64,000 nt of DNA from Patescibacteria group bacterium (lineage in GTDB: Bacteria; Patescibacteriota; Patescibacteriia; UBA9934; GWF2-40-263): NCBI GenBank assembly GCA_038065075.1, contig JBBTRQ010000011.1, positions 5,924 through 69,923 on the forward strand, given 5' to 3'. Positions 1,999 to 26,086 of the stretch are shown here, piece after piece. The notes under the pieces are model-generated. The model was not told the DNA's origin. It saw nothing but the letters and a program-made list of their open reading frames with translations, and searched no databases. The translations under genes and the position numbers were made by a program. Each line of letters opens with the position of its first letter. Positions within the stretch are counted from its first letter, which is position 1.

Positions 1999-2011
1999 AT
2001 GGCGCCCCCCG

Positions 2012-3760: not shown

Positions 3761-3840
3761 GAGGTCATGGGCTCTGGATTTCGGATCCCTGTCTCGTTTA
3801 AAGAATGTGCGTATGTCTGGCACAAGTGCGGGCGCGCTCT

Positions 3841-4062
3841 TTAGACAAGAGCATTCGCCAGAGCGACTCCAAAGAATAGAATGGACAGCACGATGGTGAG
3901 CTGAAAGAGTTTCTTTTCAGCTCCCCGTTTTGTTCGATAGACGTTTCCGCCGCCACCGAATGCCGCGCCCAGTCCCGTGCCACGAGCTTGTAGAAGGATC
4001 GCGGCGACGAGAAGAATGGCGAGGATAATTTGCGATGTGTTGAGGATCGATTCGACGTTCAT
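3841..4062 (-). CDS. secG: Preprotein translocase subunit SecG
   Basis: 73 aa with two TM segments and the SecG signature ILLQARGTGLGAAFGGGG. ATG start at 4062 (rc). Confidence 0.7.
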   Translation of the reverse strand: MNVESILNTSQIILAILLVAAILLQARGTGLGAAFGGGGNVYRTKRGAEKKLFQLTIVLSILFFGVALANALV

Positions 4063-4192
4063 AGTTCGACGTTACCCACTACGGGTACGGATTTTTGATT
4101 CGTCGAAATGCTATCAGAGAACCCTCATTTGGTCAATTCCATGATATACTTTTTCTATCATCCACGCTATTTATAGTGAGTCATATCGAACT

Positions 4193-4927: not shown

Positions 4928-4929
4928 CT

Positions 4930-6504: not shown

Positions 6505-6513
6505 GATTTCATG

Positions 6514-6548
6514 CACCGGGCGCAACTCTTGCCCGGTGTTTTGTTTTG
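6514..6548 (+). terminator. Rho-independent terminator after the Cys-rich protein gene
   Basis: CACCGGGC-gcaactctt-GCCCGGTG hairpin followed by TTTTGTTTTG. Confidence 0.55.
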
Positions 6549-6587
6549 TGGTAGTGTGGCGAGCGCTTTATAGCCACAGATTTCATA

Positions 6588-6601
6588 GGGGCTTTAGCCC
6601 C
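6588..6601. repeat. GC hairpin GGGGCTTTAGCCCC inside a 25-nt exact repeat (TTTCATAGGGGCTTTAGCCCCGTCC) whose second copy sits at ~32893-32917 in inverted orientation
   Basis: Direct comparison: 6581-6605 equals the reverse complement of ~32893-32917 over 25 nt. Confidence 0.6.
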
Positions 6602-6672
6602 GTCCGTGTTCGACGCCCCTCCCGCCGTCGCTGAAGCTATGGCGGGCAGGAAAGGGGCTGTGAAGATTTATT

Positions 6673-9549
6673 ATGTCCAACAAGATTTCTGTTCGAGGAG
6701 CCCGCGTTCACAACCTCAAGAACATCAGTGTCGACATCCCAAAGAATCAGCTCGTCGTCATTACCGGTCTTTCCGGTTCGGGGAAATCCTCTCTGGCCTT
6801 TGACACCATTTACGCCGAAGGTCAGCGCCGCTACATGGAGTCGCTGTCTTCTTACGCCCGTCAGTTCCTTGAGCTTCAAGACAAACCAGACGTCGATGAG
6901 ATCCTTGGTCTCTCGCCGACGATCGCCATCGACCAAAAATCTTCGTCGCACAACCCGCGCTCTACCGTGGGGACCGTGACGGAGATTTATGATTTTTTAC
7001 GCGTCTTGTTCGCGCGTGCCGGCCGACCGCATTGTCCAAAATGTGGCGCACCGGTGTCTGAGCAGTCACTTCCGCAGATCGTGACACAGGTGAGCAAGTC
7101 GCTCGGGGAAAACCGTATCCTCCTCTTGGCTCCCGTTGTTCACCAACTTAAAGGCGAGCACAAACCTGCCTTGCAGGGCGCGCTCAATGCCGGGTTTACG
7201 CGTGTGCGTTTTGATGGATTTTTGATGGACACGCAAGAGGCGCTCACGATGCGCAAAGATAAGAAGAAGGATCACGACATCGACGTCGTCATATTCGATT
7301 TTGACCCGACTCAGACGTACTCCATGGAAACGGTGACCGTGCAAGTTCAGAAAGCCCTTGAGTATGGCAATGGTTTCGTGACGCTTTTGAACGACGACAA
7401 CGGAGACGAGTCCACCCTCTCTCAAAGTTTCATGTGCACCAACTGCAACCTCAACCTTCCTAAACCTGAACCGCGACTCTTCTCGTTTAACTCTCCGTTC
7501 GGTGCCTGCCCAGAATGTACGGGCCTAGGGGAGAAGCTTGTGCTTGAACCGGATCTCGTGATCCCTAACCGTCGCCTCACGTTTGAAGAGGGAGCCGTGC
7601 GGCCATGGACGCGCATTGCCGGCAACCAGACGAGCTACATGGACATCTTGAAGCTGGTCGCGAAGAAACATCGCATCCCCATGGACGCGCCCATCAGCAA
7701 AATCGCCAAGGCAAAATTAGAATTGCTTCTGAACGGAACGGGTGATGACGAGTACTCGTACAAGGGTGAGATGGTGACGTTCCCTGGAATCCTCGTCCAA
7801 CTTGAGCAGAAGTACCGCGAAACGGATTCTGAGTATGTCCGTGCTGAACTCGAGGGCTATATGCGCCGCATGCTATGTCCCCGTTGTCAGGGGAAACGTC
7901 TCCAGCCATCGGTGTTGGCGATCACCATTGCAGACAAATCGATTTCGGATGTCGTGAATATGCCCGTGGAGGAAGTGAAGGAATTTTTTGAGAAGGTAGC
8001 GAAGGTGGAACCCGCCTTCGCCAAGGCTATGGCGGGCAAGAAGGTGGCGAAGGTGGAAAAGGGACTCACGAATGAGGAGCGTCTTGTGGTGGAGCGCGTC
8101 GCCAAGGAGGTGCGGGCTCGCATCGACCAGCTCATGCAGGTTGGCCTTGGGTATCTCACCCTCGACCGTAGTGCGATGACGCTTTCGGGCGGAGAGAGCC
8201 AGCGCGTGCGGCTTGCGACCCAGCTTGGCAGTCAGCTCTCCGGTGTTATCTATATTTTGGATGAGCCCTCCATCGGTCTGCACCCACGCGACAACGACCA
8301 TCTCATTGAAACGATCCGTGCGCTGAAAGACTTTGGCAACTCTGTCATCGTCGTCGAGCACGATAAGGCCATGATCGAGGCGGCCGACTATGTGTTTGAT
8401 GTGGGTCCGGGTGCGGGCGAGTACGGCGGACAGATCGTCGCGGAAGGAACGCCTGCCCAGATCAAGAAGAATAAAGATTCGCTCACGGGCCAATACCTCA
8501 CGGGCAAGAAAGAGATTCCGCTCCCGAAGAAGTACCGCAAAGGAAATGGCAAGAAGATTACCGTGCAAGGGGCAACCGCGTTCAACCTCAAGAACGTCGA
8601 CGTCGATATCCCACTTGGAAAACTTGTCTGCGTGACAGGCGTTTCAGGATCGGGAAAGTCGACGCTCATTTTGGATATCTTAGGCAAGGCGCTGAGCCGG
8701 AAGTTTTACCGCGCCAAGGTGTATCCGGGTGACCACAAGGCAATCCACGGCATTGAGAACATCGACAAGGTCGTTGCGGTGGACCAGTCGCCGATTGGTC
8801 GAACCCCGCGTTCCAACCCAGCAACGTACACCGGCGTCTTCACGGCGATCCGAGATCTCTTCACAGATCAACCTGAAGCGAAGATGCGCAAGTTTGACGC
8901 CGGCAAGTTTAGTTTCAACGTGAAGGGTGGAGGACGTTGTGAAGCCTGCGGGGGAGATGGCATGCGTCGGATTGAAATGCAGTTCTTGCCCGACGTGTAC
9001 GTCGAGTGTTCCGAGTGCCGTGGCACGCGCTACAACCAAGAGGCGCTTGAGATCCACTACAAACAAAAACACATCGCCGATGTGCTCAACATGACGGTGG
9101 AGGAGGCGCGTCGCTTCTTCGCAGATCAGACGGCGATCTTTGATAAGCTCAACATCCTGCACGAGGTGGGACTGGGATACCTGCGCCTTGGACAGAGCGC
9201 CACAACGCTCTCCGGCGGAGAGGCTCAGCGCGTGAAACTCGCCACCGAGCTTTCTCGTCGCGCCACCGGCCGGACACTCTACATTCTGGACGAGCCCACG
9301 ACAGGTCTTCACTTCGAAGACATCAAGCGGCTCCTGGGCGTCTTGCACCAGCTGGTCGACAAAGGGAACACCGTCGTCATCATCGAGCACAACCTCGACG
9401 TCGTGAAAGGCGCTGACTGGGTGATCGACATGGGACCCGACGGGGGCATTAAGGGGGGAGAAGTAGTGGCCGTTGGTACACCTAAAGATATTGTGAAGAT
9501 AAAGAGGAGTATCACTGGACAGTACCTAAAAGCAGTCTTGAAAGGTTGA
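6673..9549 (+). CDS. uvrA: Excinuclease ABC subunit A (UvrA)
   Basis: 958 aa. Two ABC ATPase modules (GLSGSGKSSLAF... and GVSGSGKSTL...), LSGGE signatures x2, and Zn-finger Cys clusters (CPKCG, CTNCN, CPECTG, CEACGGDG...CSECRG). Confidence 0.95.
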   Translation: MSNKISVRGARVHNLKNISVDIPKNQLVVITGLSGSGKSSLAFDTIYAEGQRRYMESLSSYARQFLELQDKPDVDEILGLSPTIAIDQKSSSHNPRSTVGTVTEIYDFLRVLFARAGRPHCPKCGAPVSEQSLPQIVTQVSKSLGENRILLLAPVVHQLKGEHKPALQGALNAGFTRVRFDGFLMDTQEALTMRKDKKKDHDIDVVIFDFDPTQTYSMETVTVQVQKALEYGNGFVTLLNDDNGDESTLSQSFMCTNCNLNLPKPEPRLFSFNSPFGACPECTGLGEKLVLEPDLVIPNRRLTFEEGAVRPWTRIAGNQTSYMDILKLVAKKHRIPMDAPISKIAKAKLELLLNGTGDDEYSYKGEMVTFPGILVQLEQKYRETDSEYVRAELEGYMRRMLCPRCQGKRLQPSVLAITIADKSISDVVNMPVEEVKEFFEKVAKVEPAFAKAMAGKKVAKVEKGLTNEERLVVERVAKEVRARIDQLMQVGLGYLTLDRSAMTLSGGESQRVRLATQLGSQLSGVIYILDEPSIGLHPRDNDHLIETIRALKDFGNSVIVVEHDKAMIEAADYVFDVGPGAGEYGGQIVAEGTPAQIKKNKDSLTGQYLTGKKEIPLPKKYRKGNGKKITVQGATAFNLKNVDVDIPLGKLVCVTGVSGSGKSTLILDILGKALSRKFYRAKVYPGDHKAIHGIENIDKVVAVDQSPIGRTPRSNPATYTGVFTAIRDLFTDQPEAKMRKFDAGKFSFNVKGGGRCEACGGDGMRRIEMQFLPDVYVECSECRGTRYNQEALEIHYKQKHIADVLNMTVEEARRFFADQTAIFDKLNILHEVGLGYLRLGQSATTLSGGEAQRVKLATELSRRATGRTLYILDEPTTGLHFEDIKRLLGVLHQLVDKGNTVVIIEHNLDVVKGADWVIDMGPDGGIKGGEVVAVGTPKDIVKIKRSITGQYLKAVLKG
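7993..8058 (+). repeat. 66-nt in-frame mini-insertion in uvrA with 18-bp direct repeats flanking a 27-nt palindromic core; a diverged copy lies in the uvrA 5' leader at ~6615-6660
   Basis: AAGGTAGCGAAGGTGGAA - CCCGCCttcgccaaggctatGGCGGGC - aag - AAGGTGGCGAAGGTGGAA encodes KVAKVEPAFAKAMAGKKVAKVE. The leader copy CCCGCCgtcgctgaagctatGGCGGGCaggaaaggggctgtgaag matches roughly 35 of 46 positions. Confidence 0.45.
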
Positions 9550-9582
9550 CGTATTTAGGAAAATAGGCTAGTTTTGTTCGCT

Positions 9583-11238
9583 ATGAAACGACTTGCCTCA
9601 TCCCTCCTCTTGCTTGCACTTTTCCTGGGGAACGCCCCTGGAATCTCTGCCGCAACACTTACCCTGGTTGATTCAGGTCAACCGTTCTATCCATTGTCTG
9701 CCGTAACGTCGGAAGCCGTTTGGAATTATGGAACCCATGAGGTTGAGCGAACATCCATCGCGAAAGGCTTTGTTGGTCCGGTAAAATTCCAAGATGGCCT
9801 TCTTGTAAACGATGGGAGCCAGACGCTGTATCTGCGTGGTGGGCTCGCGTTTGAGTACCCAACGTTTATTGACCTCACCGACCCGGATTTTTATACAACG
9901 CCCATTGAAGAAAATGGATTGGCTGTGCTTGATCACTACGGTGAGGTTTTGAGTGGCGGAGCCTACATCGGCGCATTCACCTATGACTACGCGACTATGT
10001 ATGAAGGACTCCGCGGCGAAGAGTCGCAAGCCCAGTATGTCGAATCCGTTCGTGAGATCACAGATTCATTCGGGTCACTTGCGGGTGATTTCCTTCAGAC
10101 ATTTGTTGATCGACTTCTGGCCAACGCGGTACAGGATCAACTAAAGAATACAAACATTGTTTCAACGGACGTCGTCGCTTTCTCGCAAGAGGGCGAACAG
10201 CTCGTTGTCGTTGTACAGCTGACCTTCAAGGACGGTTCATCTCAGCTGTGGTACGCCGATGATGAAGACACACTCAAAGTGGTTACGGACTCTTGGATCG
10301 CCAAGGACGGCGACTTGCGTGGCGTACATGTGATGGAAAGCGGGTTGATCGCCTTTTTCCGGAATCACTACTATCGGATTTTCAATCCCAAGACCGGTCG
10401 TACAACAGATGAGTCTTCGGGTGGTCGTCTGAGTTGGACGGTTTCCGAACAAAAGAGCCTGCGTATTCAGGACGGCACAGCGGTATGGTTGGATCCTGAT
10501 GGAAGACTCCGATTCGCCGGTACAGGTTTTGTTGGCATCTGGGGAGAGGTTCATGAGAATGAGTTTGCCGTTGTGAACGATCGTCTCTACGCGCGTACCG
10601 AAGGTGCAAATCACGTCGTGGACCTTACCAATGGCACTACGACAAACAATGTCGACCTACTCGTCATGGATGAATTTGACGGGTTCCAAGTCGGTTTGAT
10701 CGGAGATCGCATCGTGTATCGCCATACAAAAACAGGAAAGGATTTGACCATTGGCTATGGCTCACGCCCCATGCTCTCCGGCGCGAATCACGTGTATTGG
10801 ACGGGCGCGGACGGGAAGTTCTATCACGCGACGATTCGTCCCAGCCTCGTAAAGACGTCACAGGTTCAGGCTTGGAAGCAGGCGGGAAGCCCGATTGTGT
10901 ATCTCGTAAAAGATGGTTGGCGTTATGCCATCCCAGATGAGACCACCTACTTCACCTGGTTTGATTCTTGGTCGCAGGTGAAGACGGTTGGGAATGAGAT
11001 CTACAGCGTTCCTATTGGTGGAGCGGCCTCCATGAATATCGGATCACTCGTGAAGTTGGTCGGAGATGATCGGGTCTATATGGTGACAGACTGGCGGCGA
11101 CTTCAGCACCTGGATAACGAAGCCGTGGTCATCAGTGATTACGGAAAAACCTGGGCCACGCAAGTCAAACAGATTGGTACAGCTCCGGCAAAGCACTATA
11201 CATTTGGTCAGCCGTTCAGTACGGTTGTACATGAATAA
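9583..11238 (+). CDS. Secreted hypothetical protein (paralog A of the 26595..28286 product)
   Basis: The track ORF 9574 starts with TTG. The first ATG at 9583 gives MKRLASSLLLLALFLGNAPGISAATL (signal peptide). The C-terminal region shares motifs with the 26595 protein (HVYWTGADGKFYHATI / HAYWQGADGNIYEVTF; TYFTWFDSW / VYFTWFDSW). Confidence 0.6.
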   Translation: MKRLASSLLLLALFLGNAPGISAATLTLVDSGQPFYPLSAVTSEAVWNYGTHEVERTSIAKGFVGPVKFQDGLLVNDGSQTLYLRGGLAFEYPTFIDLTDPDFYTTPIEENGLAVLDHYGEVLSGGAYIGAFTYDYATMYEGLRGEESQAQYVESVREITDSFGSLAGDFLQTFVDRLLANAVQDQLKNTNIVSTDVVAFSQEGEQLVVVVQLTFKDGSSQLWYADDEDTLKVVTDSWIAKDGDLRGVHVMESGLIAFFRNHYYRIFNPKTGRTTDESSGGRLSWTVSEQKSLRIQDGTAVWLDPDGRLRFAGTGFVGIWGEVHENEFAVVNDRLYARTEGANHVVDLTNGTTTNNVDLLVMDEFDGFQVGLIGDRIVYRHTKTGKDLTIGYGSRPMLSGANHVYWTGADGKFYHATIRPSLVKTSQVQAWKQAGSPIVYLVKDGWRYAIPDETTYFTWFDSWSQVKTVGNEIYSVPIGGAASMNIGSLVKLVGDDRVYMVTDWRRLQHLDNEAVVISDYGKTWATQVKQIGTAPAKHYTFGQPFSTVVHE

Positions 11239-11693
11239 CGTCGCTGAGATTCCATGAGGGAAACTTCGTGGAATCGATTGCGGCGTTCATCCCGAGCGCT
11301 CAGAGGGAGAAGCCAGATGCCTGCACTCCGAGAAGCACCCCAGAAGCTGAGGCGCGACTCGCGCCCACCTTCCCGCCAGGCGGTCTACTTGATCTACATC
11401 GCCCAGGACCGCGGACTCCTCGCCATGGACTACGGGGGCATCTCCTTCACCCTGCTGGACGAGCTCTACCGCGAGCACATCTACATCTGTGCCCCGGTCT
11501 CGCTTGGAGTCTATTAAGGCGCTTTCAAGCACCCTTCTACGTGCTCACCAACCCTGCTCCGGTCGCATCGAACTTTGGGCGGCTGATACATGCTGGCACA
11601 CGAAAACAGGGGTATCGGGGTTGAGTGTCTTACTGGCAATTTTCGGCTTATGTTCGCCTGTTTCCGGCGAGACAGATATCGTCACCCCTCGAA

Positions 11694-13238
11694 TTATTCG
11701 ACGCCGTATTTAGTATCCGTACCCTTATCAGACACTTTCAAAAAGAGATGGCGGTTAGCACTTACTCGAAACCTCAAATACAGTAGATGGGTCGATGTAC
11801 TGGGATCCGGCCCGCTGATCTCTAAAGTGGGGTGTTCAGCCTGAAGTATTTTTATGACTTCGTCGACTTTCTGACCAACGTCCGACGAGTTGTACAAACG
11901 TGAGTGGACACGCATGGCAAGTTCATTCATCCAGATATCCTCTTCAGAACGAAGCGTCTTTTTCTTTGGCTCAACGACATCCACTGCCTTCTGAAGGACA
12001 AGTATATGTTTTGATGCATCAAAACTATCTGGCGCATTCAGATAATCCTGAGCAGAATCGAGGAACGTTCCACTGAAGTGGAGCACATCTTCATATTCGG
12101 CGATATAAATGTTGTACTCTTCAAGCTTTGCCTTCTGCTCTTTGAGTGACAACTCTTTATCGATTCCTAGATCATCACAGAATGGAGCGAGAATCTCATC
12201 TTTAAATGATTTTTCGTGGCCGGATTTCGGCGCGTCAAAGATGACCCTAGTCTCCTTATCAAAGCTTCGCCACAATTTCCAGAATTGGTATGTCATGTTA
12301 TTTCCACCAGTGCTCACCATAAATACACGACGGCTCCAATCGACCCTATTATCGGTCTTCAGTTTGCCGAAAATAATCTCGTCTGACATTCCTTCAATGA
12401 AAAGTGTAACAGGCGCATAAAGGAACGCGCGCTTGTTTGCATCGAGAAACGGTCCAAGTTTCTCGATCAGAACATCGGCTCCGTTTTCGCTTGCTTGAAT
12501 GATATGTGTATCACGTAGGCGATCCTTCAGATTGAAGTACGAGTAGGTATAGGTATCGGGGTTTCCGACACGAATCATTTCGGGATTATGCGTTGCAAAC
12601 ACGAACTGTTTCCCATAACCTATTTCAGCGTGTATCTCCTCAAGAAGGAATGAAATCATGTCTGGATGGAGATAAAGTTCTGGTTCGTCCACTGCAAGAA
12701 AAAGACACTTTGGGTGGTAAACGTAGGTTAGAAGTAACGACAAACGCCGTAGTCCATCACTTTCGTGTTGAGGTGAATACGATGGGACTTCTTCGTCATT
12801 TTCACGCAGAAACCCCATTACATTTTTCACGCCTCGCTTTTGAAGATTTGGGTAACGACCAAGGTACTTTTGGAGGGCATCACGAATCTTAATTCTGATT
12901 TCTGGATAATCCTCGAGGTGCTGATAGAACGTCTGTCCCGTAACCTCTTCGCTGTCGAGATCCGACTGGCTTGCCGATTTGTCCAAAATTGACTGGCTCT
13001 CCTGATACAGATCGTGTTGTGGCGACGCGGTGATGTACTGTGCAAAATAACCATCACGATTTCGACCGCTATTTGTAATTACTTGCTTCGCCTGTTTGGT
13101 CACGGTTCTAAGAACCAAACTTTTCCCAGAACCATTCGGTCCAAAAAAATAATTGATAGCCTTAAACGTCAGTTTTTTGTCTTGGTGCAAACCATGTGGT
13201 AGGCCGCTCACCTGCGCCTCTTTGAGAAGAAGTTCCAT
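11694..13238 (-). CDS. OLD-family / PARIS(AriAB)-like ABC-type ATPase fused to a Toprim-like nuclease domain (anti-phage defence nuclease)
   Basis: 514 aa. Walker A FGPNGSGKS, Walker B/D-loop LFLAVDEPELYLHPD, H-loop FVFATHNPEMI (AAA_21/ABC-like ATPase). The C-terminal FIEGMSDEIIFGKL...VFMVSTGG...VIFDAP resembles the Toprim E-G...D motifs of OLD nucleases and DUF4435. Confidence 0.6.
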   Translation of the reverse strand: MELLLKEAQVSGLPHGLHQDKKLTFKAINYFFGPNGSGKSLVLRTVTKQAKQVITNSGRNRDGYFAQYITASPQHDLYQESQSILDKSASQSDLDSEEVTGQTFYQHLEDYPEIRIKIRDALQKYLGRYPNLQKRGVKNVMGFLRENDEEVPSYSPQHESDGLRRLSLLLTYVYHPKCLFLAVDEPELYLHPDMISFLLEEIHAEIGYGKQFVFATHNPEMIRVGNPDTYTYSYFNLKDRLRDTHIIQASENGADVLIEKLGPFLDANKRAFLYAPVTLFIEGMSDEIIFGKLKTDNRVDWSRRVFMVSTGGNNMTYQFWKLWRSFDKETRVIFDAPKSGHEKSFKDEILAPFCDDLGIDKELSLKEQKAKLEEYNIYIAEYEDVLHFSGTFLDSAQDYLNAPDSFDASKHILVLQKAVDVVEPKKKTLRSEEDIWMNELAMRVHSRLYNSSDVGQKVDEVIKILQAEHPTLEISGPDPSTSTHLLYLRFRVSANRHLFLKVSDKGTDTKYGVE

Positions 13239-13286
13239 ATCTGTAGTGCAGACTATATCATGCCGTTACAATTCAGAGCTGTAAAC

Positions 13287-13889
13287 TTAGAAAGAATATG
13301 AAATCACTCCACGGACGACGCCTTCGATCCTAAAATCTTTATCGGCAACGAACGGATCGTATTTCTTGTTTTCAGAGATCAGGATGATGGCGTTATCGGA
13401 TTTTTGAATCCGTTTGATTAACGCTTCACCTCGATTTACGCACACGACGATCTCGCCGTTCTGCGCGTCATCTGACTTTTTCACCAGAACGAGATCTTTA
13501 TTATGAATTTTCGGCGTCATCGAATCTCCAGAAGCTCTTACCAGGAATGCACCCCCCGCCGGGAAGCCGAGAATCTTTGTTGAGATCGGGACTTGCTCGA
13601 TAGGGTCGCCGTCGAGGACTGAACCGTTCGGTCCACATTTGGCAAACCCGTAAAGATTCAGGTAGGCCACCTTTGCGTCGCCTGTGCCGGAAACGACCTG
13701 GTAATCCCTAGGGTTAGAAGGATTGCGACGCAGACGCCCCTTTTCTTCGAGCTGACGGATGTGGTGGAGAACTACACTCGGAGAAGAGACTCCGAGCTCC
13801 TCCTGAAGATCACGGATGGAGAGTTGCTCGTGCCGATGCCTTTCCAAGAGAACAAGTAGCTTCGCTTGGGTGGGATGGAGCTCCTGCAT
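13287..13889 (-). CDS. LexA / phage-CI-like repressor (wHTH + S24 peptidase)
   Basis: 200 aa. N-terminal wHTH (LSIRDLQEELGVSSPSVVLHHIRQLEEKGRL). S24 catalytic Ser in ASGDSMTP and Lys in EALIKRI, plus the self-cleavage region. Confidence 0.85.
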   Translation of the reverse strand: MQELHPTQAKLLVLLERHRHEQLSIRDLQEELGVSSPSVVLHHIRQLEEKGRLRRNPSNPRDYQVVSGTGDAKVAYLNLYGFAKCGPNGSVLDGDPIEQVPISTKILGFPAGGAFLVRASGDSMTPKIHNKDLVLVKKSDDAQNGEIVVCVNRGEALIKRIQKSDNAIILISENKKYDPFVADKDFRIEGVVRGVISYSF

Positions 13890-14005
13890 ATGTGGACAAC
13901 TATACGCTGTGGATAACTTTCAGTCAAGAACATCCTTGTATTGTTCTACGATTTGTTCTACTCTCGGAATATGCTCGCCGAAACAGTTGATGGTTCTCGT
14001 CCCGC
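13890..14005. promoter_or_regulatory. Divergent control region between the repressor gene and the + strand module; candidate operator direct repeat TTGTTCTAC x2
   Basis: tattGTTCTACgattTGTTCTACtc at ~13935-13960. CACGTG...CGTGTCACATG quasi-palindrome at ~14023-14048. Confidence 0.3.
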
Positions 14006-14419
14006 ATGCACAGCCGATTAATGGCCACGTGCTTAATTACGTGTCACATGAACGTTGGGACACTCATGCTGGCGCATAACACCAATTCGTCCCATGCATA
14101 TATGGTTCAACCCTATAACGGCCATCATCCCTACACGCAGGTGTGTGTCGGAGGATGGCAATACGCCCTGACCGGCGTGTATTACTGCGGCTACCTCGGA
14201 GCTGACGGACGGCTTCAACCGCTCTACATCGGCCGCGCAATTGGCGACGGCGGAATCCGTGGCCGTCTGCTCGATCATCTCCGAGATGATGTGTGGCCTG
14301 GTGTGACACATTTCGGATTCGCGGTTTGTGCCACTGCGCAAGAAGCTATCACTCATGAAGCGGCGGAGATTCGGCGCTTTCAGCCACGTTTTAACACACA
14401 AGGAAAATCCTATGGCTAA
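14006..14419 (+). CDS. Small GIY-YIG nuclease-domain protein (start uncertain; possibly M33 at 14102)
   Basis: GVYYCGYLGADGRLQPLYIGRAIGDGGIRGRLLDHL...THEAAEIRRFQPRFN fits GIY-(x10)-YIG...R...H...E...N. Its stop overlaps the next start (ATGGCTAA). Confidence 0.5.
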   Translation: MHSRLMATCLITCHMNVGTLMLAHNTNSSHAYMVQPYNGHHPYTQVCVGGWQYALTGVYYCGYLGADGRLQPLYIGRAIGDGGIRGRLLDHLRDDVWPGVTHFGFAVCATAQEAITHEAAEIRRFQPRFNTQGKSYG

Positions 14420-14636
14420 CCAACATGTTCTGAAACGCGAAGACGGCTGGGGTGTACGCCGCGAAAAAGCTTCCCGCGACACCGTCATCGTCCCCACGCA
14501 GAAGGCAGCAGAAAAGATCGCAAAGGAAATCGCCACGAATCAGGGAGGAGATGTCTTTATTCATCGGCAGACGGGCAGCCAATGGCGCGAACGCAACACC
14601 TATGGAAAAATCGACCACAATCCCCCGAGGGGATGA
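14412..14636 (+). CDS. DUF2188-family small protein
   Basis: MANQHVLKREDGWGVRREKASRDTVIVPTQKAAEKIAKEIATNQGGDVFIHRQTGSQWRERNTYGKIDHNPPRG matches the DUF2188 pattern (GW.V.....A......K.eAi..A...A...g.e..IH...G.i....syg.DP.PP.G). AGGAAA Shine-Dalgarno 5 nt upstream of the ATG. Confidence 0.6.
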   Translation: MANQHVLKREDGWGVRREKASRDTVIVPTQKAAEKIAKEIATNQGGDVFIHRQTGSQWRERNTYGKIDHNPPRG

Positions 14637-14994
14637 TGCTTCGACAGGCGTTCAGATTCAGGAATCTGAGACGGAGGTGGCGGTGATCATCACGAACCTC
14701 CACCTCCACACGACCGTGCTGCGCAAGCCCAAGACCTTCGCGGAAGGCGTCCGACGTTCCCTTACAAGCGGGAAGGCCGGCCGCGTTCACCAGTCGGACG
14801 GGTTCGAAATCGCTCCAGACGGACAAACGTTCAAGTTCACGATTCCAATCGAAGGGATGGACAGGGTGGTCGCCGATGCCGCCGCCAAAGGCCAACGCGT
14901 CCGCTTCTACATTCCGAGGGATGGCCTGCCTCTCTACATAGGCAAGGATCTTATCCAGCGCACCGAGGCTCTGAAACGCCAGGACAAGGTGTGA
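14602..14994 (+). CDS. Hypothetical protein (start uncertain; alternative GTG at ~14683 with a GGAGG 6 nt upstream)
   Basis: ORF in the same orientation as its neighbours, ...VIITNLHLHTTVLRKPKTFAEGVRRSLTSGKAGRVHQSDGFEIAPDGQTFKFTIPIEGMDRVVADAAAKGQRVRFYIPRDGLPLYIGKDLIQRTEALKRQDKV. No recognisable domain. Confidence 0.3.
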   Translation: MEKSTTIPRGDDASTGVQIQESETEVAVIITNLHLHTTVLRKPKTFAEGVRRSLTSGKAGRVHQSDGFEIAPDGQTFKFTIPIEGMDRVVADAAAKGQRVRFYIPRDGLPLYIGKDLIQRTEALKRQDKV

Positions 14995-15050
14995 TGTAAT
15001 ACCAGTAGATCGTTCCAACTTCACGTCTACAACGTGGTGTATCACTAATT

Positions 15051-15180
15051 CCGGCTCCGGCCGGTAGGAGGCGCGGTAACGCGCCGAAGAGGCATCGCCT
15101 CGGTCGTGCCCGCTCTGTAGAGCTAGTTCGAAAGTCTATTTGGATTTTTCGTGCTCGCTCTACGGAGCGGGCACTTTTTG
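15051..15180 (+). promoter_or_regulatory. Cluster of four consecutive GC hairpins ending in an 18-bp stem / 33-nt loop hairpin plus T-run (terminator, structured leader, ncRNA or pac/ori candidate)
   Basis: CCGGC-tccg-GCCGG (15051-64). GCGCG-gtaa-CGCGC (15071-84). GAGG-catcg-CCTC. GTGCCCGCTCTGTAGAGC (15106-23) ... GCTCTACGGAGCGGGCAC (15157-74) with one G.U pair, then TTTTT. Confidence 0.45.
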
Positions 15181-15214
15181 TTCCCTCACTAACTTATTCA
15201 TCACATTCAGTCAT

Positions 15215-16597
15215 ATGGCCAAACACAACCTTACTCAACACGACGGCACCAAAATTGCCGTTCAGTACGTCCCGCTCGCTTCCCTGAAGCTCGCGGAATA
15301 CAACCCGCGTCGCCATGACGCGGAGCAAGCCGCCAAGCTCAAGGACGGCATCAAAAAGTTCGGGCTGGTCGACCCGATCATCGTGAACGCGGCTCCCGAA
15401 CGCGAGAACATCATCATCGGTGGTCACTTCCGAGCGGAGATCGCAAAGGAGCTTGGCATGACCGAGGTTCCGGTCGTCTTCGTGAACATACCCGACATTG
15501 GGCGCGAGAAGGAATTGAACCTTCGCCTTAATCGCAACACGGGCGAATTCGACCTGGAACTCCTGGCCGAGTTCGACGAGTCCCTACTCACAGACATCGG
15601 CTTCACAACGAACGAGCTCGACCAAATCTTCGAGGCCGAGGAGACGCCCGAGATGTTCGACCTCAATAAGGAGCTGGCCAAACTCGATATCAAACAGATC
15701 GAGATCCAGAAGGGCGACGTATGGCAACTCGGCGAGAGTCAGCTTATGTGCGGGGATTCAACAGTTGAGGTGGACATGTTCACACTCATGGGTGGCGAAC
15801 GAGCGGACATGTGCTTCACCGATCCTCCATACATCCTCGACTATCTCCATGGGAAGAGAAAGGAGGGTCAAGCTGTCACCGGCTTCGGGGCGAAGCGCAA
15901 TCGCCGCTATCTTGAGACCGATGTTCTGCCGCCCGACTTTACGGAAAAATGGATGGGCAGCGTGGTCAAGGTGGCCGCGTCCAACTTCTCGATCATCGTG
16001 TACGAGAATTGGAAGAATATCCGTACGATCTGGGGCGAGATGGAGAAGTATTGGAAGGTAAAAAACATGATCGTTTGGCATCTCGAGAACCGCCACCAAG
16101 GGTTCTCATCCAAGTACAAATTTTTCAACAAGCACGATATCGCCGTGGTCGGCGCGGGCGGTGACGTGCCGTATAACTTCGATCCCGAAGAGGCACCGCT
16201 CCAGGAGGAATACGAGACAGCGCTTTATGCCATCTCCGGAAAGCCACAATGGGAGCCGTACCAAAAGGGCAAGAAAAACTGTCCGACGGACTTTATCGAG
16301 TTCCGTGCGTCCGATGAGAAGCATTCCGGCCAGGGTGTCATCTTTGGCACCAAGCCGACGGAAATTCTCATCCCGTACATCAAGGTGCTCACGAAACGCA
16401 ATGATATCATCCTTGAACCCTTCGGTGGATCCGGTTCGACGTTGATCGCCGCGACGAAGATGAGTCGCCGATGCCGAATCATGGAAAAGTCGCCGGTGTA
16501 CGCGGAAGTGATTCGCAAGCGTTGGGAAAAACTCACAGGGCAGAAAGCAGTCCGTATTTCGTGCGGCATCTATGGAAAATCCAACCCTACATCCTAA
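15215..16597 (+). CDS. ParB-like nuclease N-terminal domain fused to a DNA (N6-adenine/N4-cytosine) methyltransferase
   Basis: First ATG gives MAKHNLTQHDGTKIAVQYVPLASLKLAEYNPRRHD... (ParB-N/ParB-like nuclease). Motif IV FTDPPY precedes motif I ILEPFGGSGSTLIAA (beta-class amino-MTase order). The track ORF 15140 has an N-terminal extension across the hairpin and is rejected. Confidence 0.8.
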   Translation: MAKHNLTQHDGTKIAVQYVPLASLKLAEYNPRRHDAEQAAKLKDGIKKFGLVDPIIVNAAPERENIIIGGHFRAEIAKELGMTEVPVVFVNIPDIGREKELNLRLNRNTGEFDLELLAEFDESLLTDIGFTTNELDQIFEAEETPEMFDLNKELAKLDIKQIEIQKGDVWQLGESQLMCGDSTVEVDMFTLMGGERADMCFTDPPYILDYLHGKRKEGQAVTGFGAKRNRRYLETDVLPPDFTEKWMGSVVKVAASNFSIIVYENWKNIRTIWGEMEKYWKVKNMIVWHLENRHQGFSSKYKFFNKHDIAVVGAGGDVPYNFDPEEAPLQEEYETALYAISGKPQWEPYQKGKKNCPTDFIEFRASDEKHSGQGVIFGTKPTEILIPYIKVLTKRNDIILEPFGGSGSTLIAATKMSRRCRIMEKSPVYAEVIRKRWEKLTGQKAVRISCGIYGKSNPTS

Positions 16598-17030
16598 CGC
16601 TCGGCGCACACAGGCAAAGCGGGACGCGGAGAAAGTTCGGCTTGTCGAGGCATTTAGGAAAACGCCCATCGTTCAACTCGCTTGCCAGTCGGCCGGTGTC
16701 CAGAGTCGATCGAGCTATTACCGGTGGCGCAAGGAGGATCCCGAATTCGCCAAGGCCTGTGACGACGCGATTGGCGAGGGTGTTGAACTTGTCTCGGATC
16801 TTGCAGAATCCAAACTTATCCAAGCCATCAAGGAGCAGAACTACTCCGCGATTAGTTTCTGGCTGCGCCATCGGCACCCCGCCTACGCTGACAAACTTAA
16901 CATTCAAGCCAAGGTAGAAGTCGATAAGCCATTAACTTCGGAGCAAGAGGCGGTGATCCGTCGCGCCATCGAGCTTGCCAGGCTCCCACCACCTTATGAC
17001 CAATCCAAACCTTCTACCCCTGCCGAATGA
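16572..17030 (+). CDS. Putative phage terminase small subunit (HTH DNA-binding)
   Basis: 152 aa. N-terminal HTH with SRSSYYRWRKEDPEFAKACDDA, typical of TerS. It lies immediately upstream of and overlaps the TerL gene. Confidence 0.55.
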   Translation: MENPTLHPNARRTQAKRDAEKVRLVEAFRKTPIVQLACQSAGVQSRSSYYRWRKEDPEFAKACDDAIGEGVELVSDLAESKLIQAIKEQNYSAISFWLRHRHPAYADKLNIQAKVEVDKPLTSEQEAVIRRAIELARLPPPYDQSKPSTPAE

Positions 17031-18519
17031 GGACCCTGAGACGGTGAGCGACCTCGTGCACCTCATGATTCGCGACCAGCGGATCCGTACCGAGGTGACG
17101 CGCGGAAGCCATATGTGGTTCTTTCTGACCTACCTCGCGGATTATGTCCGCTATCCCTTCGCGCCGTTCCATCGCGAGATGTTCGCCCTATCTGAGGACG
17201 ACACCCTGCCAATGTTGGTACTCATGGCGTTCCGCGGGTCGGCCAAGTCTACAATCTTCACTCTCTCGTATCCGATTTGGGCGATCCTCGGACAACAGAA
17301 AAAGAAGTTCATCGTCATCCTCGGCCAGACGCAGCAACAGGCACGACAGTATCTCGCCAACCTCAAACGTGAGCTGGAGCGCAACGATCTGCTCCGGCGA
17401 GATCTCGGTCCATTCGAGGAGCGCGACGAGGAATGGAGCGCTGGAAGCATCGTCATTCCTAAATACGATGCCCGCATCACCGCCATTTCCTGCGAGCAAG
17501 GCATCCGTGGACTTCGTCACGGTGCATACCGCCCCGACCTCATCATCTGCGACGACCTGGAGAACCTCGACAGCGTGCGGACGCGCGATGGCCGCCAAAA
17601 ACTCTACCAATGGCTCATGGGCGAGGTCATTCCTGCTGGGGACGTGAACACCCGTATCGTAATCGTCGGCAACTGCCTGCACGATGACGGAATCATGATG
17701 CGGCTCCAGCGAGAGATCACGGCTGGCGCAAGGTTGGGCGTGTTCCGATCGTTCCCACTTCTTGATGACGAAGGTATTTGTTTGTGGCCAGGCAAGTTCC
17801 CAGATCCCGAATTGGTCGAGTCATTTAAGCGGTCGGTGGTGGACGAGATCACCTGGCAACGGGAGTACTTATTAAGAATCATCGCTGGGGTCGATACTGT
17901 GATCCATCGCGACTGGATTCAGTATTACGACGAGGCGGAGATGGCAGCGTGCGGAGAGAAGTTCCGCTACGTGGGGATCGGCATCGATTTGGCGATCTCC
18001 GACAAGGATACCGCCGACTACACCGCCATGGTGACGGCACACGTGTACGGACGAATCAAAAAACTTCGAATCTTCATCCAACCGCATCCGACAAATGAGC
18101 GGCTTGGGTTTCCGGATACCTACGAGCGAGTAAAGGCCATGGCAAATCTCCACACAGACAAAGCAAAGCTCAAAATTTTCATCGAAGATGTAGGCTATCA
18201 AGGCGCACTAATTCAGATGCTCGAAAAAGACGGGTACCCGGCCGAGGGCGTGAAACTTCACGGTGCGGATAAGCGATCTCGTCTTGCGCTTACGAGTCAT
18301 CTGATCAAAAACGGGGTAATTCGCTTTCCTCGGATTGGCGCAGAGGAATTGATCGAGCAACTGACCGGCTTCGGCTCGGAACGCCACGATGACCTCGCGG
18401 ATGCATTCTCGAGTTTGATCATCAAAATCAAAGAGCATGACAAACCCGCGCCGTGCATCGGGTTCATCTCGTTCGGATGGGACGGATCGGTGCGAGATAC
18501 GCGGATTGAACTGGACTAA
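16996..18519 (+). CDS. Phage terminase large subunit (ATPase + nuclease)
   Basis: Walker A-like MAFRGSAKST, Walker B LIICDDLEN, and C-terminal RNaseH-like nuclease region (IGIDLAISDKDTADYTAMV...). The track ORF starts at TTG 16975; the first ATG is at 16996. Confidence 0.85.
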   Translation: MTNPNLLPLPNEDPETVSDLVHLMIRDQRIRTEVTRGSHMWFFLTYLADYVRYPFAPFHREMFALSEDDTLPMLVLMAFRGSAKSTIFTLSYPIWAILGQQKKKFIVILGQTQQQARQYLANLKRELERNDLLRRDLGPFEERDEEWSAGSIVIPKYDARITAISCEQGIRGLRHGAYRPDLIICDDLENLDSVRTRDGRQKLYQWLMGEVIPAGDVNTRIVIVGNCLHDDGIMMRLQREITAGARLGVFRSFPLLDDEGICLWPGKFPDPELVESFKRSVVDEITWQREYLLRIIAGVDTVIHRDWIQYYDEAEMAACGEKFRYVGIGIDLAISDKDTADYTAMVTAHVYGRIKKLRIFIQPHPTNERLGFPDTYERVKAMANLHTDKAKLKIFIEDVGYQGALIQMLEKDGYPAEGVKLHGADKRSRLALTSHLIKNGVIRFPRIGAEELIEQLTGFGSERHDDLADAFSSLIIKIKEHDKPAPCIGFISFGWDGSVRDTRIELD

Positions 18520-19508
18520 AATTCGTCTAGATTCAATCCTGGAACCTGATAAAGTTGTTCAATCGCTTTACGCTCCTCGTCTGACAAAAGTTGTACCCCG
18601 CGATTATAAAGAAATTTTACGAATTCATTTACATCCTGGTCATCATGAACCCAATGGATCTGATTATTTTGGATTGCGGCTTGAAGCATCGATCGCAATT
18701 CGTCATCGGTAAATTCTGAAAACTTGCTCAATACAGCAACTGATTTATGTGTAGTCTCAAAATTTCTAGTGTTCGCGAAACCGTCAATAGCGAGGCTTCT
18801 GGCAAGCTCATCGGCCAGTTGAATATTAGGGTACTTATCTCTAAAGAACTGCGATAGGTCAGGATAAAGATATACTTGGGAATTTTTCTTGATTTTCCAT
18901 TCATCTTTCAGGCAATCAAGTATTTCGCCATCGTGTAAAGGTGAGCGGTAATCAGAATCTTTTGAAATGAGATACAAGTCTTCTTTTTGTGGGACGTTGG
19001 CTAAAAGCGAAAGCCAGCAAATCGCGTCTCCGTATGAATTATTTTTTCCTGGCGGGTGTCCGAGGTCCATTCTTCTGACAGCCTTATCGATAATTGTTGC
19101 TGTTTCCAGAACAATTGCCTTAGAGAATATTTCTTCCAAGGTTTTATCAGCTTTTAAACCATCCTGAGCTGCCTCCTCTCTGATGTTCTGTACCGCCTTC
19201 GAGATGAGTTTAGAGAATTCTCTCGCTGCCACGCTCAAAGCAGTGTGGTTTGCGTCGAGCTGAACCAATTGAGGAAATTTCGAGACGGTGTTCCTCAATT
19301 GGAATTCCCGAATGGCATCGGCGATTTTCGTCTCTCTGTTTCGTCGAAATTCAGACCTCGCATGGTCAGGTAAATACAAAACGATACCGCGTTGATCAAG
19401 TGCTGTGACGAGTTTTTTTAATGCCTCAAGATCGTCATCGGTATAATGATAAAAAGAGAGGTATATGTTTGTATCAATGAAGACGTGTAATGCCACAAGA
19501 AATTTCAC
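18516..19508 (-). CDS. PIN-like domain protein (DUF4935-like), last gene of the type I R-M operon
   Basis: N-terminal VFIDTNIYLSFYHYTDDDLEALKKL (PIN-type acidic motif). GTG start at 19508 directly abuts the hsdS stop codon (19509-19511). 330 aa. Confidence 0.55.
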   Translation of the reverse strand: MKFLVALHVFIDTNIYLSFYHYTDDDLEALKKLVTALDQRGIVLYLPDHARSEFRRNRETKIADAIREFQLRNTVSKFPQLVQLDANHTALSVAAREFSKLISKAVQNIREEAAQDGLKADKTLEEIFSKAIVLETATIIDKAVRRMDLGHPPGKNNSYGDAICWLSLLANVPQKEDLYLISKDSDYRSPLHDGEILDCLKDEWKIKKNSQVYLYPDLSQFFRDKYPNIQLADELARSLAIDGFANTRNFETTHKSVAVLSKFSEFTDDELRSMLQAAIQNNQIHWVHDDQDVNEFVKFLYNRGVQLLSDEERKAIEQLYQVPGLNLDEF

Positions 19509-20693
19509 CTATAAAAGCTGTGCGGTCAAAGCTGAAAATGCTTCGTCGATCAATTGTCCACGATGCAGTTGTTTTCCTCGGATTTTTGCCGAATTTTCTA
19601 CAAGCTCAACAAATTCAACCTGCTTATCTTTTGGAGGCACCAAAATATCCAAACCCGTCAGTGCATCGGTGTTAAGACTCTGAACAGTCGCTCCGGTTTT
19701 GATCAGTGTTAACAGATGTCTTTCTAAACCACGCAATTGCCAATACAGAAAAATCGGATTGATCTCTGCCGAAGGGATCAGAGCTTTGATATCTTGGTTA
19801 ATCGCCACTGGTCTAGCTGTGATCGCGATCGGTACCGTATGCTTCAAGATTCCACTGCGAGTAACCACCAATAATGAATTGGGAGGTATCAGATTTGTAG
19901 CTGATTCCGCAATTGCTTCTTGAGTTATGTGATCCTCAGTATCCTCAATAAACTCATCCCCCATGTCCTTCGGGGAGACCCATGGAATCACTCCGTTCCA
20001 AAATTTTCCCATTTGTTTCGAAGGTGTACCCCCACCCTTAACGGTTACCACGTCGCTCAATTTTTTTGTCAAAAAGTTTTGGTCAATTGAGTTACCAAAC
20101 ATTTGGTCAAACAATGCAGGAGCGAAGTCAGACAAAATTTTGTATGCGCTATCACGTTTTGTTTTCAATTCCAGTACCTGATCCAAAGTCGACACAATTT
20201 GCTTCTGTGTCTTCAAAGGAGGAACGGGAATTAACAACTTTCCGTAACGCCGTGTCTCTAGATTTCTAATTCCTGACGTCTGTCTCTGAAGGGAGTTGGT
20301 AACGCCTTTCATATACAGATTCTGGAGGCAGTGCCAGAGGAATCGCGGATCAATCATCCCTGCGTCTTTTACTCGAATCCGAGCAGTAAAGTTACTATAG
20401 GTATACCCAGGTTTGTCCAATTGAAAGAGCGCAACTCGACCCACAGGTTGTTTGGGCCCACCACCAGATTTTTCTAAAATAATATCACCGGGCTTTAGCT
20501 CCCTTGTAGAAAACTGTCGATCTTCAACGAGATGCTCTGCCACATCATCAAAATCCAAATGACCACCCGCTTTAAAATTTGTATTACGGATAATTCTCGC
20601 CTGACGCATCGTTCCTGATTTACCAATCCAAAGACCACCCGTTATGTCACATAGTTCATCCAGATTTTTTTCGATATACGGTGAACCATGCAT
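19509..20693 (-). CDS. hsdS: Type I restriction-modification specificity subunit HsdS
   Basis: 394 aa with two target-recognition domains and central/C-terminal conserved helices. ATG at 20693 lies 1 nt after the hsdM stop. Confidence 0.85.
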   Translation of the reverse strand: MHGSPYIEKNLDELCDITGGLWIGKSGTMRQARIIRNTNFKAGGHLDFDDVAEHLVEDRQFSTRELKPGDIILEKSGGGPKQPVGRVALFQLDKPGYTYSNFTARIRVKDAGMIDPRFLWHCLQNLYMKGVTNSLQRQTSGIRNLETRRYGKLLIPVPPLKTQKQIVSTLDQVLELKTKRDSAYKILSDFAPALFDQMFGNSIDQNFLTKKLSDVVTVKGGGTPSKQMGKFWNGVIPWVSPKDMGDEFIEDTEDHITQEAIAESATNLIPPNSLLVVTRSGILKHTVPIAITARPVAINQDIKALIPSAEINPIFLYWQLRGLERHLLTLIKTGATVQSLNTDALTGLDILVPPKDKQVEFVELVENSAKIRGKQLHRGQLIDEAFSALTAQLL

Positions 20694-20694
20694 A

Positions 20695-22170: not shown

Positions 22171-22176
22171 AGAATT

Positions 22177-26051: not shown

Positions 26052-26086
26052 AAAACCCGCATTCCATGAGGAGTACGGGTTTTCTT
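26052..26086 (+). terminator. Rho-independent terminator after the recombinase gene; its loop contains the right copy of the 11-bp repeat
   Basis: AAAACCCG-cATTCCATGAGGagta-CGGGTTTT-CTT. Confidence 0.6.

Follow-up and report, generated by a model that had tools for sequence, protein, structure and literature searches.

What is governed by a LexA-type repressor that stands divergent from a minimal nuclease, a small DUF2188 protein and a third small protein? The question is raised by positions 13287-14994 of a 64,000-nucleotide (nt) stretch of DNA from an ultra-small bacterium of the Patescibacteria (assembly GCA_038065075.1, contig JBBTRQ010000011.1), here called the window, in which an initial annotation had seen a repressor-controlled three-gene module, acting either as a lysis-lysogeny-type switch that drives the downstream methylase and terminase genes or as a compact toxin or defence module. 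Our analysis points to a different unit: the region is probably the immunity and early-control region of a satellite-like integrated element of about 15 kb that carries defence cargo, and the trio itself is a mosaic of an accessory nuclease tied to the repressor and its promoter, a mobile small protein and a core gene. The core of the element runs from the repressor through the third open reading frame (ORF3), a terminator-like hairpin, a ParB-methylase gene and the genes of a small and a large terminase to a serine recombinase. Part of this is of known kind (a temperate-element switch, a satellite-like island), and part is new or so far unannotated (a new GIY-YIG subfamily, an unannotated structured RNA). 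The features concerned are:

13287-13889, minus strand: LexA-type repressor, predicted to be self-cleaving (winged helix-turn-helix and S24 peptidase), 200 amino acids (aa), from Pfam and alignment to LexA
13899-13927 (read 13927 to 13899), minus strand: promoter-like site of the repressor gene, TTGACT-17-TATAGT, 10 of 12 consensus positions
13941-13961, plus strand: tandem direct repeat TTGTTCTAC-GAT-TTGTTCTAC, candidate operator over a putative early promoter, from its sequence and its conservation in the related locus L018
14102-14419, plus strand: stand-alone GIY-YIG endonuclease, about 102-105 aa, from homologue alignment, profile and AlphaFold
14412-14636, plus strand: DUF2188 protein, 74 aa (PF09954 1.5e-16; phrog_3220 7e-17; PADLOC candidate PDC-S16 5e-21)
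14602-14994, plus strand: ORF3-family protein, 103-130 aa, from alignment and profile search, with alternative GTG starts at 14677 and 14683
15046-15105, plus strand: three short GC-rich hairpins ahead of the terminator (CCGGC..GCCGG, GGCGCG..CGCGCC, GAGGC..GCCTC), from folding
15108-15182, plus strand: long conserved hairpin with a T-run, resembling an intrinsic terminator (hairpin 15108-15172, 65 nt, -44 kcal/mol)

The evidence comes mainly from a comparison of 44 related Patescibacteria loci (synteny by tblastn, clustering and gene tables), all of them from metagenome-assembled genomes (MAGs) or metagenome contigs. Of the 27 loci with upstream sequence, 25 have the nuclease gene in divergent orientation to a switchable regulator, which is of one of three kinds: an HTH_3 protein with an M78 peptidase (ImmR+ImmA type, 15 loci), a LexA-like S24 protein (five) or an HTH_3-Panacea protein (five). 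Ten loci, the window included, have the nuclease followed by an ORF3-family gene or directly by methylase and terminase genes, and in six of the ten the available sequence includes a serine recombinase as well; in the remaining loci, about half, no further gene follows the nuclease on its strand. The same is seen in a 35-kb phage, L030 (IMG/VR UViG_3300025323_000018, 578-13349), with a tyrosine integrase, ImmA and an ImmR divergent from the nuclease: here the nuclease is the lone gene on its strand and converges with tail genes (tape measure, hub, fibre). Because it stands alone with a repressor in L030 and in many other loci, the function of the nuclease cannot depend on the packaging core. 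Vice versa, none of ten elements that were found through ORF3 or the hairpin, independently of the nuclease, possesses it, and in eight of the ten an ORF3-family gene is detectable; in such nuclease-less elements ORF3, or a 45-aa ORF and then ORF3, comes directly after the repressor. DUF2188 follows the nuclease in only four loci and is replaced by the 45-aa ORF in five, and in other elements it lies on the repressor strand beside TIR genes or genes of the cyclic-oligonucleotide-based antiphage signalling system (CBASS). The three-gene module of the initial annotation thus dissolves: the nuclease is an accessory gene outside the core, held under a switchable repressor, and ORF3, which is conserved, opens the core that continues with the ParB-methylase, both terminases and the serine recombinase. 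Of the two functions proposed for the module, a lysis-lysogeny-type switch fits best, since the overall layout, with the serine recombinase at the far end, repeats in more than 20 Patescibacteria loci, but its control over the terminase genes is not a simple one, because a terminator-like hairpin lies between ORF3 and the methylase gene.

The other proposed function deserves separate attention. Repressor and nuclease might by themselves make up a toxin or abortive-infection module under repressor control, with DUF2188 as an optional partner and a place in the operon that is incidental: infection or DNA damage would inactivate the repressor, the nuclease would destroy DNA, and the cell would die or become arrested. 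The repressor-nuclease pair is the only invariant unit, the many loci without a further gene on the nuclease strand agree with such a module, restriction-modification or other defence genes often adjoin, and CapH/CapP-type regulators gate defence operons in an equal divergent layout. The match of DUF2188 to candidate PDC-S16 is likewise in favour, and so are the HTH-Panacea regulators, which are of antitoxin type and occupy the same position in these loci:

L019 9025-9867: HTH_3-SocA/Panacea regulator
L022 1788-2555: the same
L023 9195-9938: the same
L024 9157-9852: the same
L027 2303-2998: the same

In at least four of them (L019, L023, L024, L027), however, a gene for 129-130 aa is next on the regulator strand, and this separate gene is the probable toxin partner there. 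Neither the nuclease nor ORF3 has a PADLOC match to a known toxin or defence family, DUF2188 being the only one of the three with any such match, and no immunity partner is consistently present. Moreover, ten loci, the window among them, have the nuclease immediately 5' of the early and late genes of the element and on their strand, so that induction of the element would induce it as well. We consider the toxin or defence reading of the pair, which draws on genomic context, unlikely.

The nuclease itself is overlooked by Pfam. Its frame is open from 14006 to 14419, and its start was set at 14102, not at 14006, because all 28 aligned homologues begin at a Met matching that position. A homologue search yields a small family of proteins of about 102 aa, and together with loci from the genome scan these gave an alignment of 29 sequences, including the window protein, in which M1, G25, Y27, G30, Y42, G44, R55, H59, F71, C76, E86 and I90 are invariant and N98 is at least 90% conserved. 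The GIY and YIG motifs are represented by G25-V-Y27 (in GVYYCG) and Y42-I/V-G44, which align to YVGKA of UvrC, and the catalytic residues, singled out beforehand as the check on the assignment, are present: R55 and H59 lie in RLLxH, and E86 and N98 align to residues of the UvrC segment LEMNLI...PKYN. The family profile matches the N-terminal domain of UvrC (1yd6) at 2.3e-5 with the motifs in register. The AlphaFold model (pLDDT 90, pTM 0.83) has the alpha/beta fold with a three-stranded sheet, and the top nine Foldseek matches in PDB are all UvrC GIY-YIG domains (probability 1.00, TM 0.59-0.69, root-mean-square deviation 1.9-3.1 Å), below which only noise was ranked. These profile and model comparisons were required because the simpler searches were empty: the window protein has no Pfam match at E<=0.1, PF01541 included, and none in PADLOC, and a single-sequence search of PDB gave a cyclophilin at E 0.21 as its sole match, which was dismissed as noise. 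Among the 29 family members, eight match PF01541 weakly (best 8.8e-5) and nine match DUF123, which we take to belong to the same Pfam clan; NCBIfam yields only weak matches, to a model of a DEDD exonuclease with a GIY-YIG domain and to Cho (0.017, 14 bits against a cut-off of 367). We conclude that the protein is a real stand-alone GIY-YIG enzyme of UvrC-domain type, with a predicted fold and intact catalytic residues. An exhaustive profile search retrieved 126 cluster representatives at E<=1e-3, nearly all of 90-140 aa, and none of the family in GenBank phages, and we regard the family as a new, previously unclassified GIY-YIG subfamily. Two antisense ORFs (14033-14536 and 14557-15045) were taken as shadows of the sense-strand genes.

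The closest known counterparts are the N-terminal domain of UvrC (1yd6, 1ycz) and Cho, to which the profile, the fold and the GIY, YIG, Arg, Glu and Asn positions all lead; Cho is, in addition, an SOS-induced UvrC homologue, and the window nuclease is also placed under a LexA-type repressor. In contrast to both, it is a single domain of 102-105 aa without a UvrB-interacting region, a C-terminal RNase H-like nuclease or a helix-hairpin-helix motif, it possesses a family-specific 24-residue N-terminal strand-helix, and it is borne by a mobile element. A role as recombination directionality factor was rejected, since the nuclease occurs without a serine recombinase and, in L030, with a tyrosine integrase.

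GIY-YIG is also the classic homing endonuclease fold, to which I-TevI and the Seg proteins belong, and the nuclease could be a free-standing selfish gene of homing type that entered some elements at the junction of the repressor and the first early gene and spreads by cutting relatives that lack it. Its presence or absence at one position in otherwise syntenic elements would be expected from such a gene, as would its unusual conservation across Patescibacteria lineages: 27 of the 28 homologues are 44-59% identical to the window protein (one is 38% identical), and the mean column identity is 61%, while the adjoining regulators are of three unrelated types. The protein is, however, a bare catalytic domain of about 102 aa without the DNA-binding modules that give specificity, its nearest relatives in sequence and fold are UvrC domains and not I-TevI or Seg, and homing does not account for the constant divergent facing of a repressor. 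This explanation appears improbable to us.

The repressor gene, described beforehand as LexA/CI-like and divergent from the three small genes, agrees with that description in Pfam (Peptidase_S24, PF00717, 6e-24; LexA_DNA_bind, PF01726, 8e-9) and in a full-length alignment to solved LexA structures in PDB (1e-11). Against the NCBIfam model TIGR00498 (lexA) it scores 105.3 bits, just below the equivalog cut-off of 110.95. When aligned to Escherichia coli LexA, a Cys-Gly pair falls on the Ala84-Gly85 cleavage site, and the catalytic dyad is kept (Ser in GDSM, Lys in IKR); UmuD is likewise cleaved at Cys-Gly. These conserved residues indicate a LexA-type repressor that is predicted to cleave itself. 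Divergent repressors that are cleaved upon a signal and gate an operon are known from ImmR/ImmA, CapH/CapP, DdrO/IrrE and the S24 proteins LexA and CI, and the sister loci of the window use HTH_3 with M78, in the manner of ImmR/ImmA. Regulators of the latter kind have been reported divergent and upstream of defence operons, among them DUF2188 operons beside CapH/CapP-like genes, and are responsive to DNA damage (bioRxiv 10.1101/2022.04.27.489752). The window differs from CapH/CapP in that its regulator is of LexA-type S24 and that what it would gate is a nuclease with early genes of an element, not CBASS. The -10 hexamer of the repressor gene (TATAGT) ends only about 10 nt ahead of the ATG (13889-13904), a distance which suggests that the repressor mRNA is leaderless or almost so.

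Given the nuclease start at 14102, the spacer between the divergent genes comprises 13890-14101 (212 nt); the initial annotation had correctly placed a divergent spacer here but ended it at 14005, and the tandem repeat it had proposed as operator is present in exact copies at 13941-13949 and 13953-13961, with a period of 12 nt. Besides this pair only one further exact copy of TTGTTCTAC exists within the 64 kb, and the tandem pattern RTTCTA-N6-RTTCTA is unique there at zero mismatches; a single match with one mismatch, at 6431, is at chance level. The closest LexA-type relative, L018, with a repressor 57% identical, can be aligned over the repressor-proximal 90 nt of the spacer and has ATTCTA-N6-ATTCTA at the equivalent position, again as a single occurrence in its locus. 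Conserved between the two are CTGTGGATAA, which sits within the spacer of the repressor promoter, GTCAAGAACAT, which is its -35 region, and the two RTTCTA units at their 12-nt period. The promoter-like site of the repressor gene abuts the repeats, and on the plus strand the repeats would fill the spacer and the -10 of a weak promoter, TTGTAT-17-TACTCT (13936-13964), a placement that can be read in L018 as well; a repressor bound to them would exclude RNA polymerase from this promoter. The repeats are a credible candidate operator, conserved in one relative. A palindromic LexA box (AGAACA...TGTTCT) was disfavoured, its spacing being off by 1 nt in L018, where the period of the direct repeat is kept. 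The leader of the nuclease mRNA shows no unusual structure (z = +1.6); in L018 a perfect 12-bp hairpin, AGAAATGGGGTT...AACCCCATTTCT (9987-10021), ends at the nuclease start codon and has no equivalent in the window leader.

Could the repressor simply be the LexA of the host, and the nuclease a Cho-like SOS repair enzyme, both belonging to a chromosomal SOS regulon by uvrA and not to a mobile element? The proximity of the repressor to true LexA in profile and structure, a uvrA gene 4 kb away, the UvrC-like domain of the nuclease and its weak match to Cho would fit. Yet the repressor falls under the equivalog cut-off, the nuclease is devoid of the UvrB-binding region, and the 64 kb hold no significant second copy of the candidate operator pattern. 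Sister loci fill the repressor position with ImmR+ImmA or HTH-Panacea proteins, and terminases and a serine recombinase accompany the gene set, which occurs in varied genomic contexts. We consider a host SOS function highly improbable.

The coupling of nuclease and DUF2188 that had been noted at the start is borne out in its details: the DUF2188 ATG (14412-14414) and the nuclease TAA (14417-14419) overlap in ATGGCTAA, and an AGGA ribosome-binding site (14401-14404) lies 7 nt 5' of the ATG, so that DUF2188 is predicted to be translationally coupled to the nuclease through this overlap. The DUF2188 assignment is strong (PF09954, 60.7 bits against a gathering threshold of 22), and the literature likens the domain to a HicB-like fold. 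The third ORF, which lies in another frame and was given earlier as about 100-130 aa, is a real gene: its profile retrieves 80 proteins, one of them identical to that of the window and annotated from 'Patescibacteria group bacterium', and none of the 80 with a Pfam domain. The family shares an N-terminal motif, LTDIxLH. Its start is ambiguous, as the ATG at 14602 overlaps DUF2188 by 35 nt and the GTG at 14683 has GGAG 6 nt ahead. ORF3 shows no similarity in sequence or fold to known proteins in the libraries searched, and its AlphaFold model (pLDDT 82) matches nothing in PDB or BFVD; the structural check proposed for the small proteins thus gave a UvrC GIY-YIG fold for the nuclease and an orphan fold for ORF3. 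Apparent matches of its profile to polyubiquitin in PDB were rejected, since they add up repeats that each match below threshold.

Every element possesses a near-perfect hairpin of 62-69 nt with a T-rich run in the gap from its ORF3-family gene to its ParB-methylase gene. In the relatives it was located as follows:

L001 8892-8955
L003 5731-5796
L004 3491-3559
L013 10959-11026
L014 10883-10949
L016 11963-12030
L018 11041-11102
L031 9405-9473
L033 9440-9508
L034 9423-9491
L037-L044: also present

The base of the stem is conserved (GCCCACTTCG...CGAAGTGGGC), and the upper stem covaries: of the 26 pairs that RNAalifold supports on ten elements, 13 show compensatory changes, and there are many G-U pairs, which work on the sense strand only. 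The surrounding 161 nt (15030-15190) fold with z = -8.15. The block of three short hairpins ahead of it is common to the window, L004 and L018 and is absent from ImmR-type elements, which carry another conserved block at this place, CACAATTAAATATTACAGGTGGTGCC. Rfam holds no match for the hairpin, the spacer or the leader at gathering or at permissive thresholds, and the hairpin motif is absent from IMG/VR viral contigs; we regard the hairpin as a previously unannotated structured RNA. Since only about 35-45 nt separate it from the start of the methylase gene, there is no space for a separate promoter, and the late genes would have to be transcribed through the hairpin, which is likely a regulated terminator. 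Among the ten elements found independently of the nuclease, ORF3 lies directly 5' of the hairpin in the eight in which it was detected. This is reminiscent of Q, PR' and tR' of phage lambda, where a small gene directly precedes a strong terminator ahead of the terminase (late) genes, and from its position we conjecture that ORF3 is an antiterminator or read-through factor; in contrast to Q, it lacks similarity to known proteins in the libraries searched, and antitermination is here a prediction from gene position.

Beyond the control region, the element of the window contains or is flanked by the following:

9574-11238: 554-aa protein in the left flank, next to uvrA (gene table)
11249-11259: weak candidate left attachment (att) core ATTCCATGAGG, just past the stop of the 554-aa gene
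11694-13238, minus strand: OLD-family ATPase with TOPRIM nuclease, defence cargo (Pfam AAA_21 6e-18, OLD-like_TOPRIM 1.9e-4)
15215-16597, plus strand: ParB_N and N6/N4 DNA methyltransferase (N6_N4_Mtase 1e-19, ParB_N 3e-9, phrog_498 2e-80)
16572-17030, plus strand: small terminase-like protein (phrog_4044 6e-11, other TerS phrogs)
16975-18519, plus strand: large terminase (phrog_38 4e-76; NCBIfam termin_lrg_T7, psiM2_ORF9)
18516-24579, minus strand: cargo hotspot with a PIN_12 protein and type I restriction-modification (hsdS, hsdM, hsdR)
24706-26037, plus strand: large serine recombinase, the integrase of the element (Resolvase, Recombinase and Zn_ribbon_recom domains)
26061-26071: weak candidate right att core ATTCCATGAGG, in a hairpin loop just past the recombinase stop

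The methylase frame is open from 15140, with ATG 15215 as its likely start. The large terminase is about 50% identical among the elements and only about 25% identical to those of GenBank phages, and related elements carry, at the equivalent end, recombinase copies that are 45-56% identical. Between 11.2 and 26.1 kb, Pfam, gene table and phrog revealed no gene for capsid, portal, tail or replication, and L001, L015, L036 and others likewise have an integrase and a repressor without virion structural genes. The window element measures about 15 kb (about 11.25-26.07 kb); minimal versions, such as L036, have 7 kb. Cargo is found in two slots. Behind the repressor, on its strand, stands the OLD gene in the window (PADLOC: AriA 7e-19, Old 5e-13, and GajA), and OLD, TIR, CD-NTase with Cap15 (CBASS), DUF2188 or SEC-C proteins among the elements; between the large terminase and the recombinase stand PIN and type I restriction-modification genes in the window, while L018 has type III restriction-modification genes there and L001 an HNH-like gene. 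The G+C content of the cargo and repressor region is mostly 0.43-0.48, with 0.49-0.52 in hsdR, and that of the element core is 0.54-0.57. Evidence that the family is mobile comes from a JGI metagenome contig and an NCBI MAG (L034 and L035, 6604-11416), whose elements are 99.8% identical from one precise point while their left flanks are unrelated; the left-end sequence of the L034 element has no counterpart in the window.

Such islands resemble the phage satellites, namely phage-inducible chromosomal islands (PICI), capsid-forming PICI, PICI-like elements (PLE) and P4-like elements, in that the islands are integrated, 7-15 kb long and equipped with an integrase, a repressor switch, packaging genes and defence hotspots, and have no virion genes; PLE has a large serine recombinase, as the window element does. 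In contrast to them, the window element combines a small and a large terminase with a ParB-methylase, has no replication or capsid-remodelling genes, possesses a conserved terminator-like hairpin and resides in a Patescibacteria host without a known helper. It was not detected as viral in IMG/VR. The absence of structural genes, and a cargo G+C content that differs from that of the core, would equally be found in a decayed prophage remnant whose three small ORFs are functionless leftovers, but decay is hard to reconcile with a gene order and intact frames that repeat in more than 20 loci over several Patescibacteria lineages, terminases and recombinases that still share about 50% identity between loci, near-identical copies in different contexts, conserved catalytic residues and an RNA hairpin kept by compensatory changes. 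That the region is such a remnant we find barely credible.

For the satellite-like element we propose the following course of events. In the resting state the LexA-type repressor would occupy the repeat-bearing spacer and keep the rightward promoter off, which we infer from the divergent genes, from where the repeats lie and from their retention in L018. DNA damage, sensed through a RecA filament, would lead to self-cleavage of the repressor at Cys-Gly, as its conserved residues suggest; in sister elements ImmR+ImmA or HTH-Panacea regulators take the same place. De-repression would then open a short early operon of the GIY-YIG nuclease, DUF2188 and ORF3, and transcription would reach the conserved terminator just 5' of the methylase and terminase genes. 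Because the terminator precedes these genes, their late expression would need read-through, for which ORF3, at its lambda-Q-like position, is the candidate antiterminator. The nuclease, once induced, may cut DNA that does not belong to the element (the host chromosome, a competing or a helper phage), an analogy-based role that we take as its most likely one and to which, within this model, we give somewhat less than an even chance, and the methylase of the element could shield the element's own DNA. Alternatively, nicking might feed back on the damage-sensing repressor and so commit the switch.

Two analogies bear on the first of these roles. T4 endonuclease II (DenA), a phage enzyme, is likewise small and of GIY-YIG type and nicks host DNA that is unmodified. 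By description only the window nuclease is comparable: a small, stand-alone GIY-YIG protein of a mobile element that would be made early, with a methylase gene downstream and thus possible self-protection by modification. It differs in being predicted to be repressed at rest. NixI of the Vibrio cholerae PLE is a satellite nuclease made on induction that attacks the genome of the helper phage; it is of the HNH/I-HmuI type (PMC9410903) and was for this reason dropped as a relative and kept as a functional analogy.

Several points weigh against the interpretation as a satellite-like element with an inducible early operon. The sequence directly shows which proteins the genes encode, that their architecture and the hairpin are conserved and that the residues for catalysis and self-cleavage are intact; repression via the repeats, RecA-dependent induction, termination with antitermination and the target of the nuclease are predictions, so that repressor binding, self-cleavage, nuclease activity and termination all have a conditional standing. 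The candidate early promoter is weak, with TACTCT as its -10. The role of ORF3 is drawn from position, and its fold matches nothing. The nuclease has no DNA-binding extension, which leaves its choice of target unexplained, and, as it is alone with its repressor in about half of its loci and in the full phage L030, it cannot rely on the packaging core for its function. The borders of the window element are tentative: ATTCCATGAGG is the sole 11-mer common to both predicted borders, about 0.5 such matches are expected by chance, and a search for the empty site (attB) built from this 11-nt repeat gave no match. Finally, 'satellite' describes a form, as no helper phage is known, and a similar picture would be given by a prophage lineage in decay or by a packaging module that became domesticated.

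Joined together, the observations would describe a so far undescribed family of capsid-less, terminase-encoding integrative elements that would be phage satellites of Patescibacteria, with packaging genes gated by a terminator RNA and an antiterminator of orphan fold, and with a new GIY-YIG subfamily under three kinds of damage-sensing repressor, whose nuclease, on induction, would either attack the DNA of host or helper or commit the switch in a self-amplifying way, by making the very damage through which the repressor is inactivated. We put this full picture forward tentatively, as rather doubtful in its entirety. Its interest lies in the host group: much of bacterial diversity falls within the Patescibacteria (Candidate Phyla Radiation), whose phages and mobile elements have hardly been described. 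If they are satellites, the elements would recurrently carry defence genes of several kinds (OLD, Thoeris-like TIR, CBASS, restriction-modification) in reduced genomes, and the family would be easy to recognise by its ORF3 gene, hairpin, ParB-methylase, small and large terminase genes and serine recombinase. A minimal nuclease of about 100 aa in a consistent regulatory context is a tractable case of a bare nuclease under a DNA-damage switch, and hairpin and ORF3 may constitute a new antitermination pair.

Some minor observations concern the surroundings. The 430-440 nt between the left att candidate and the OLD gene (11260-11690) are GC-rich and contain only overlapping, unsupported ORFs, among them one of 87 aa without a Pfam match. 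Genes for P-type ATPases (heavy-metal/cation), HMA or DsbD proteins lie near several elements (L001 15078-16309, L015 17953-20088, L031 14736-17420, L033 15928-18222, L036 7504-8523), a heavy-metal/cation ATPase gene coming directly after the recombinase in at least two of them (L001 and L015) and such genes lying within a few kb in L031, L033 and L036; this is possibly a preferred integration neighbourhood. The 554-aa protein (9574-11238) and a 563-aa protein (26595-28286) that flank the window element are paralogous, with 27% identity over about 350 aa and no significant Pfam domain. At 30644-30720 lies a gene for tRNA-Ile with the anticodon TAT (UAU), which is uncommon in bacteria, where AUA is mostly read by a modified CAU tRNA. 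In a second public assembly of the locus (L002, ENA ERZ1286166 contig_5401) the uvrA, OLD, repressor, terminase and hsd genes are split, presumably through frameshift errors of the assembly and not as pseudogenes.

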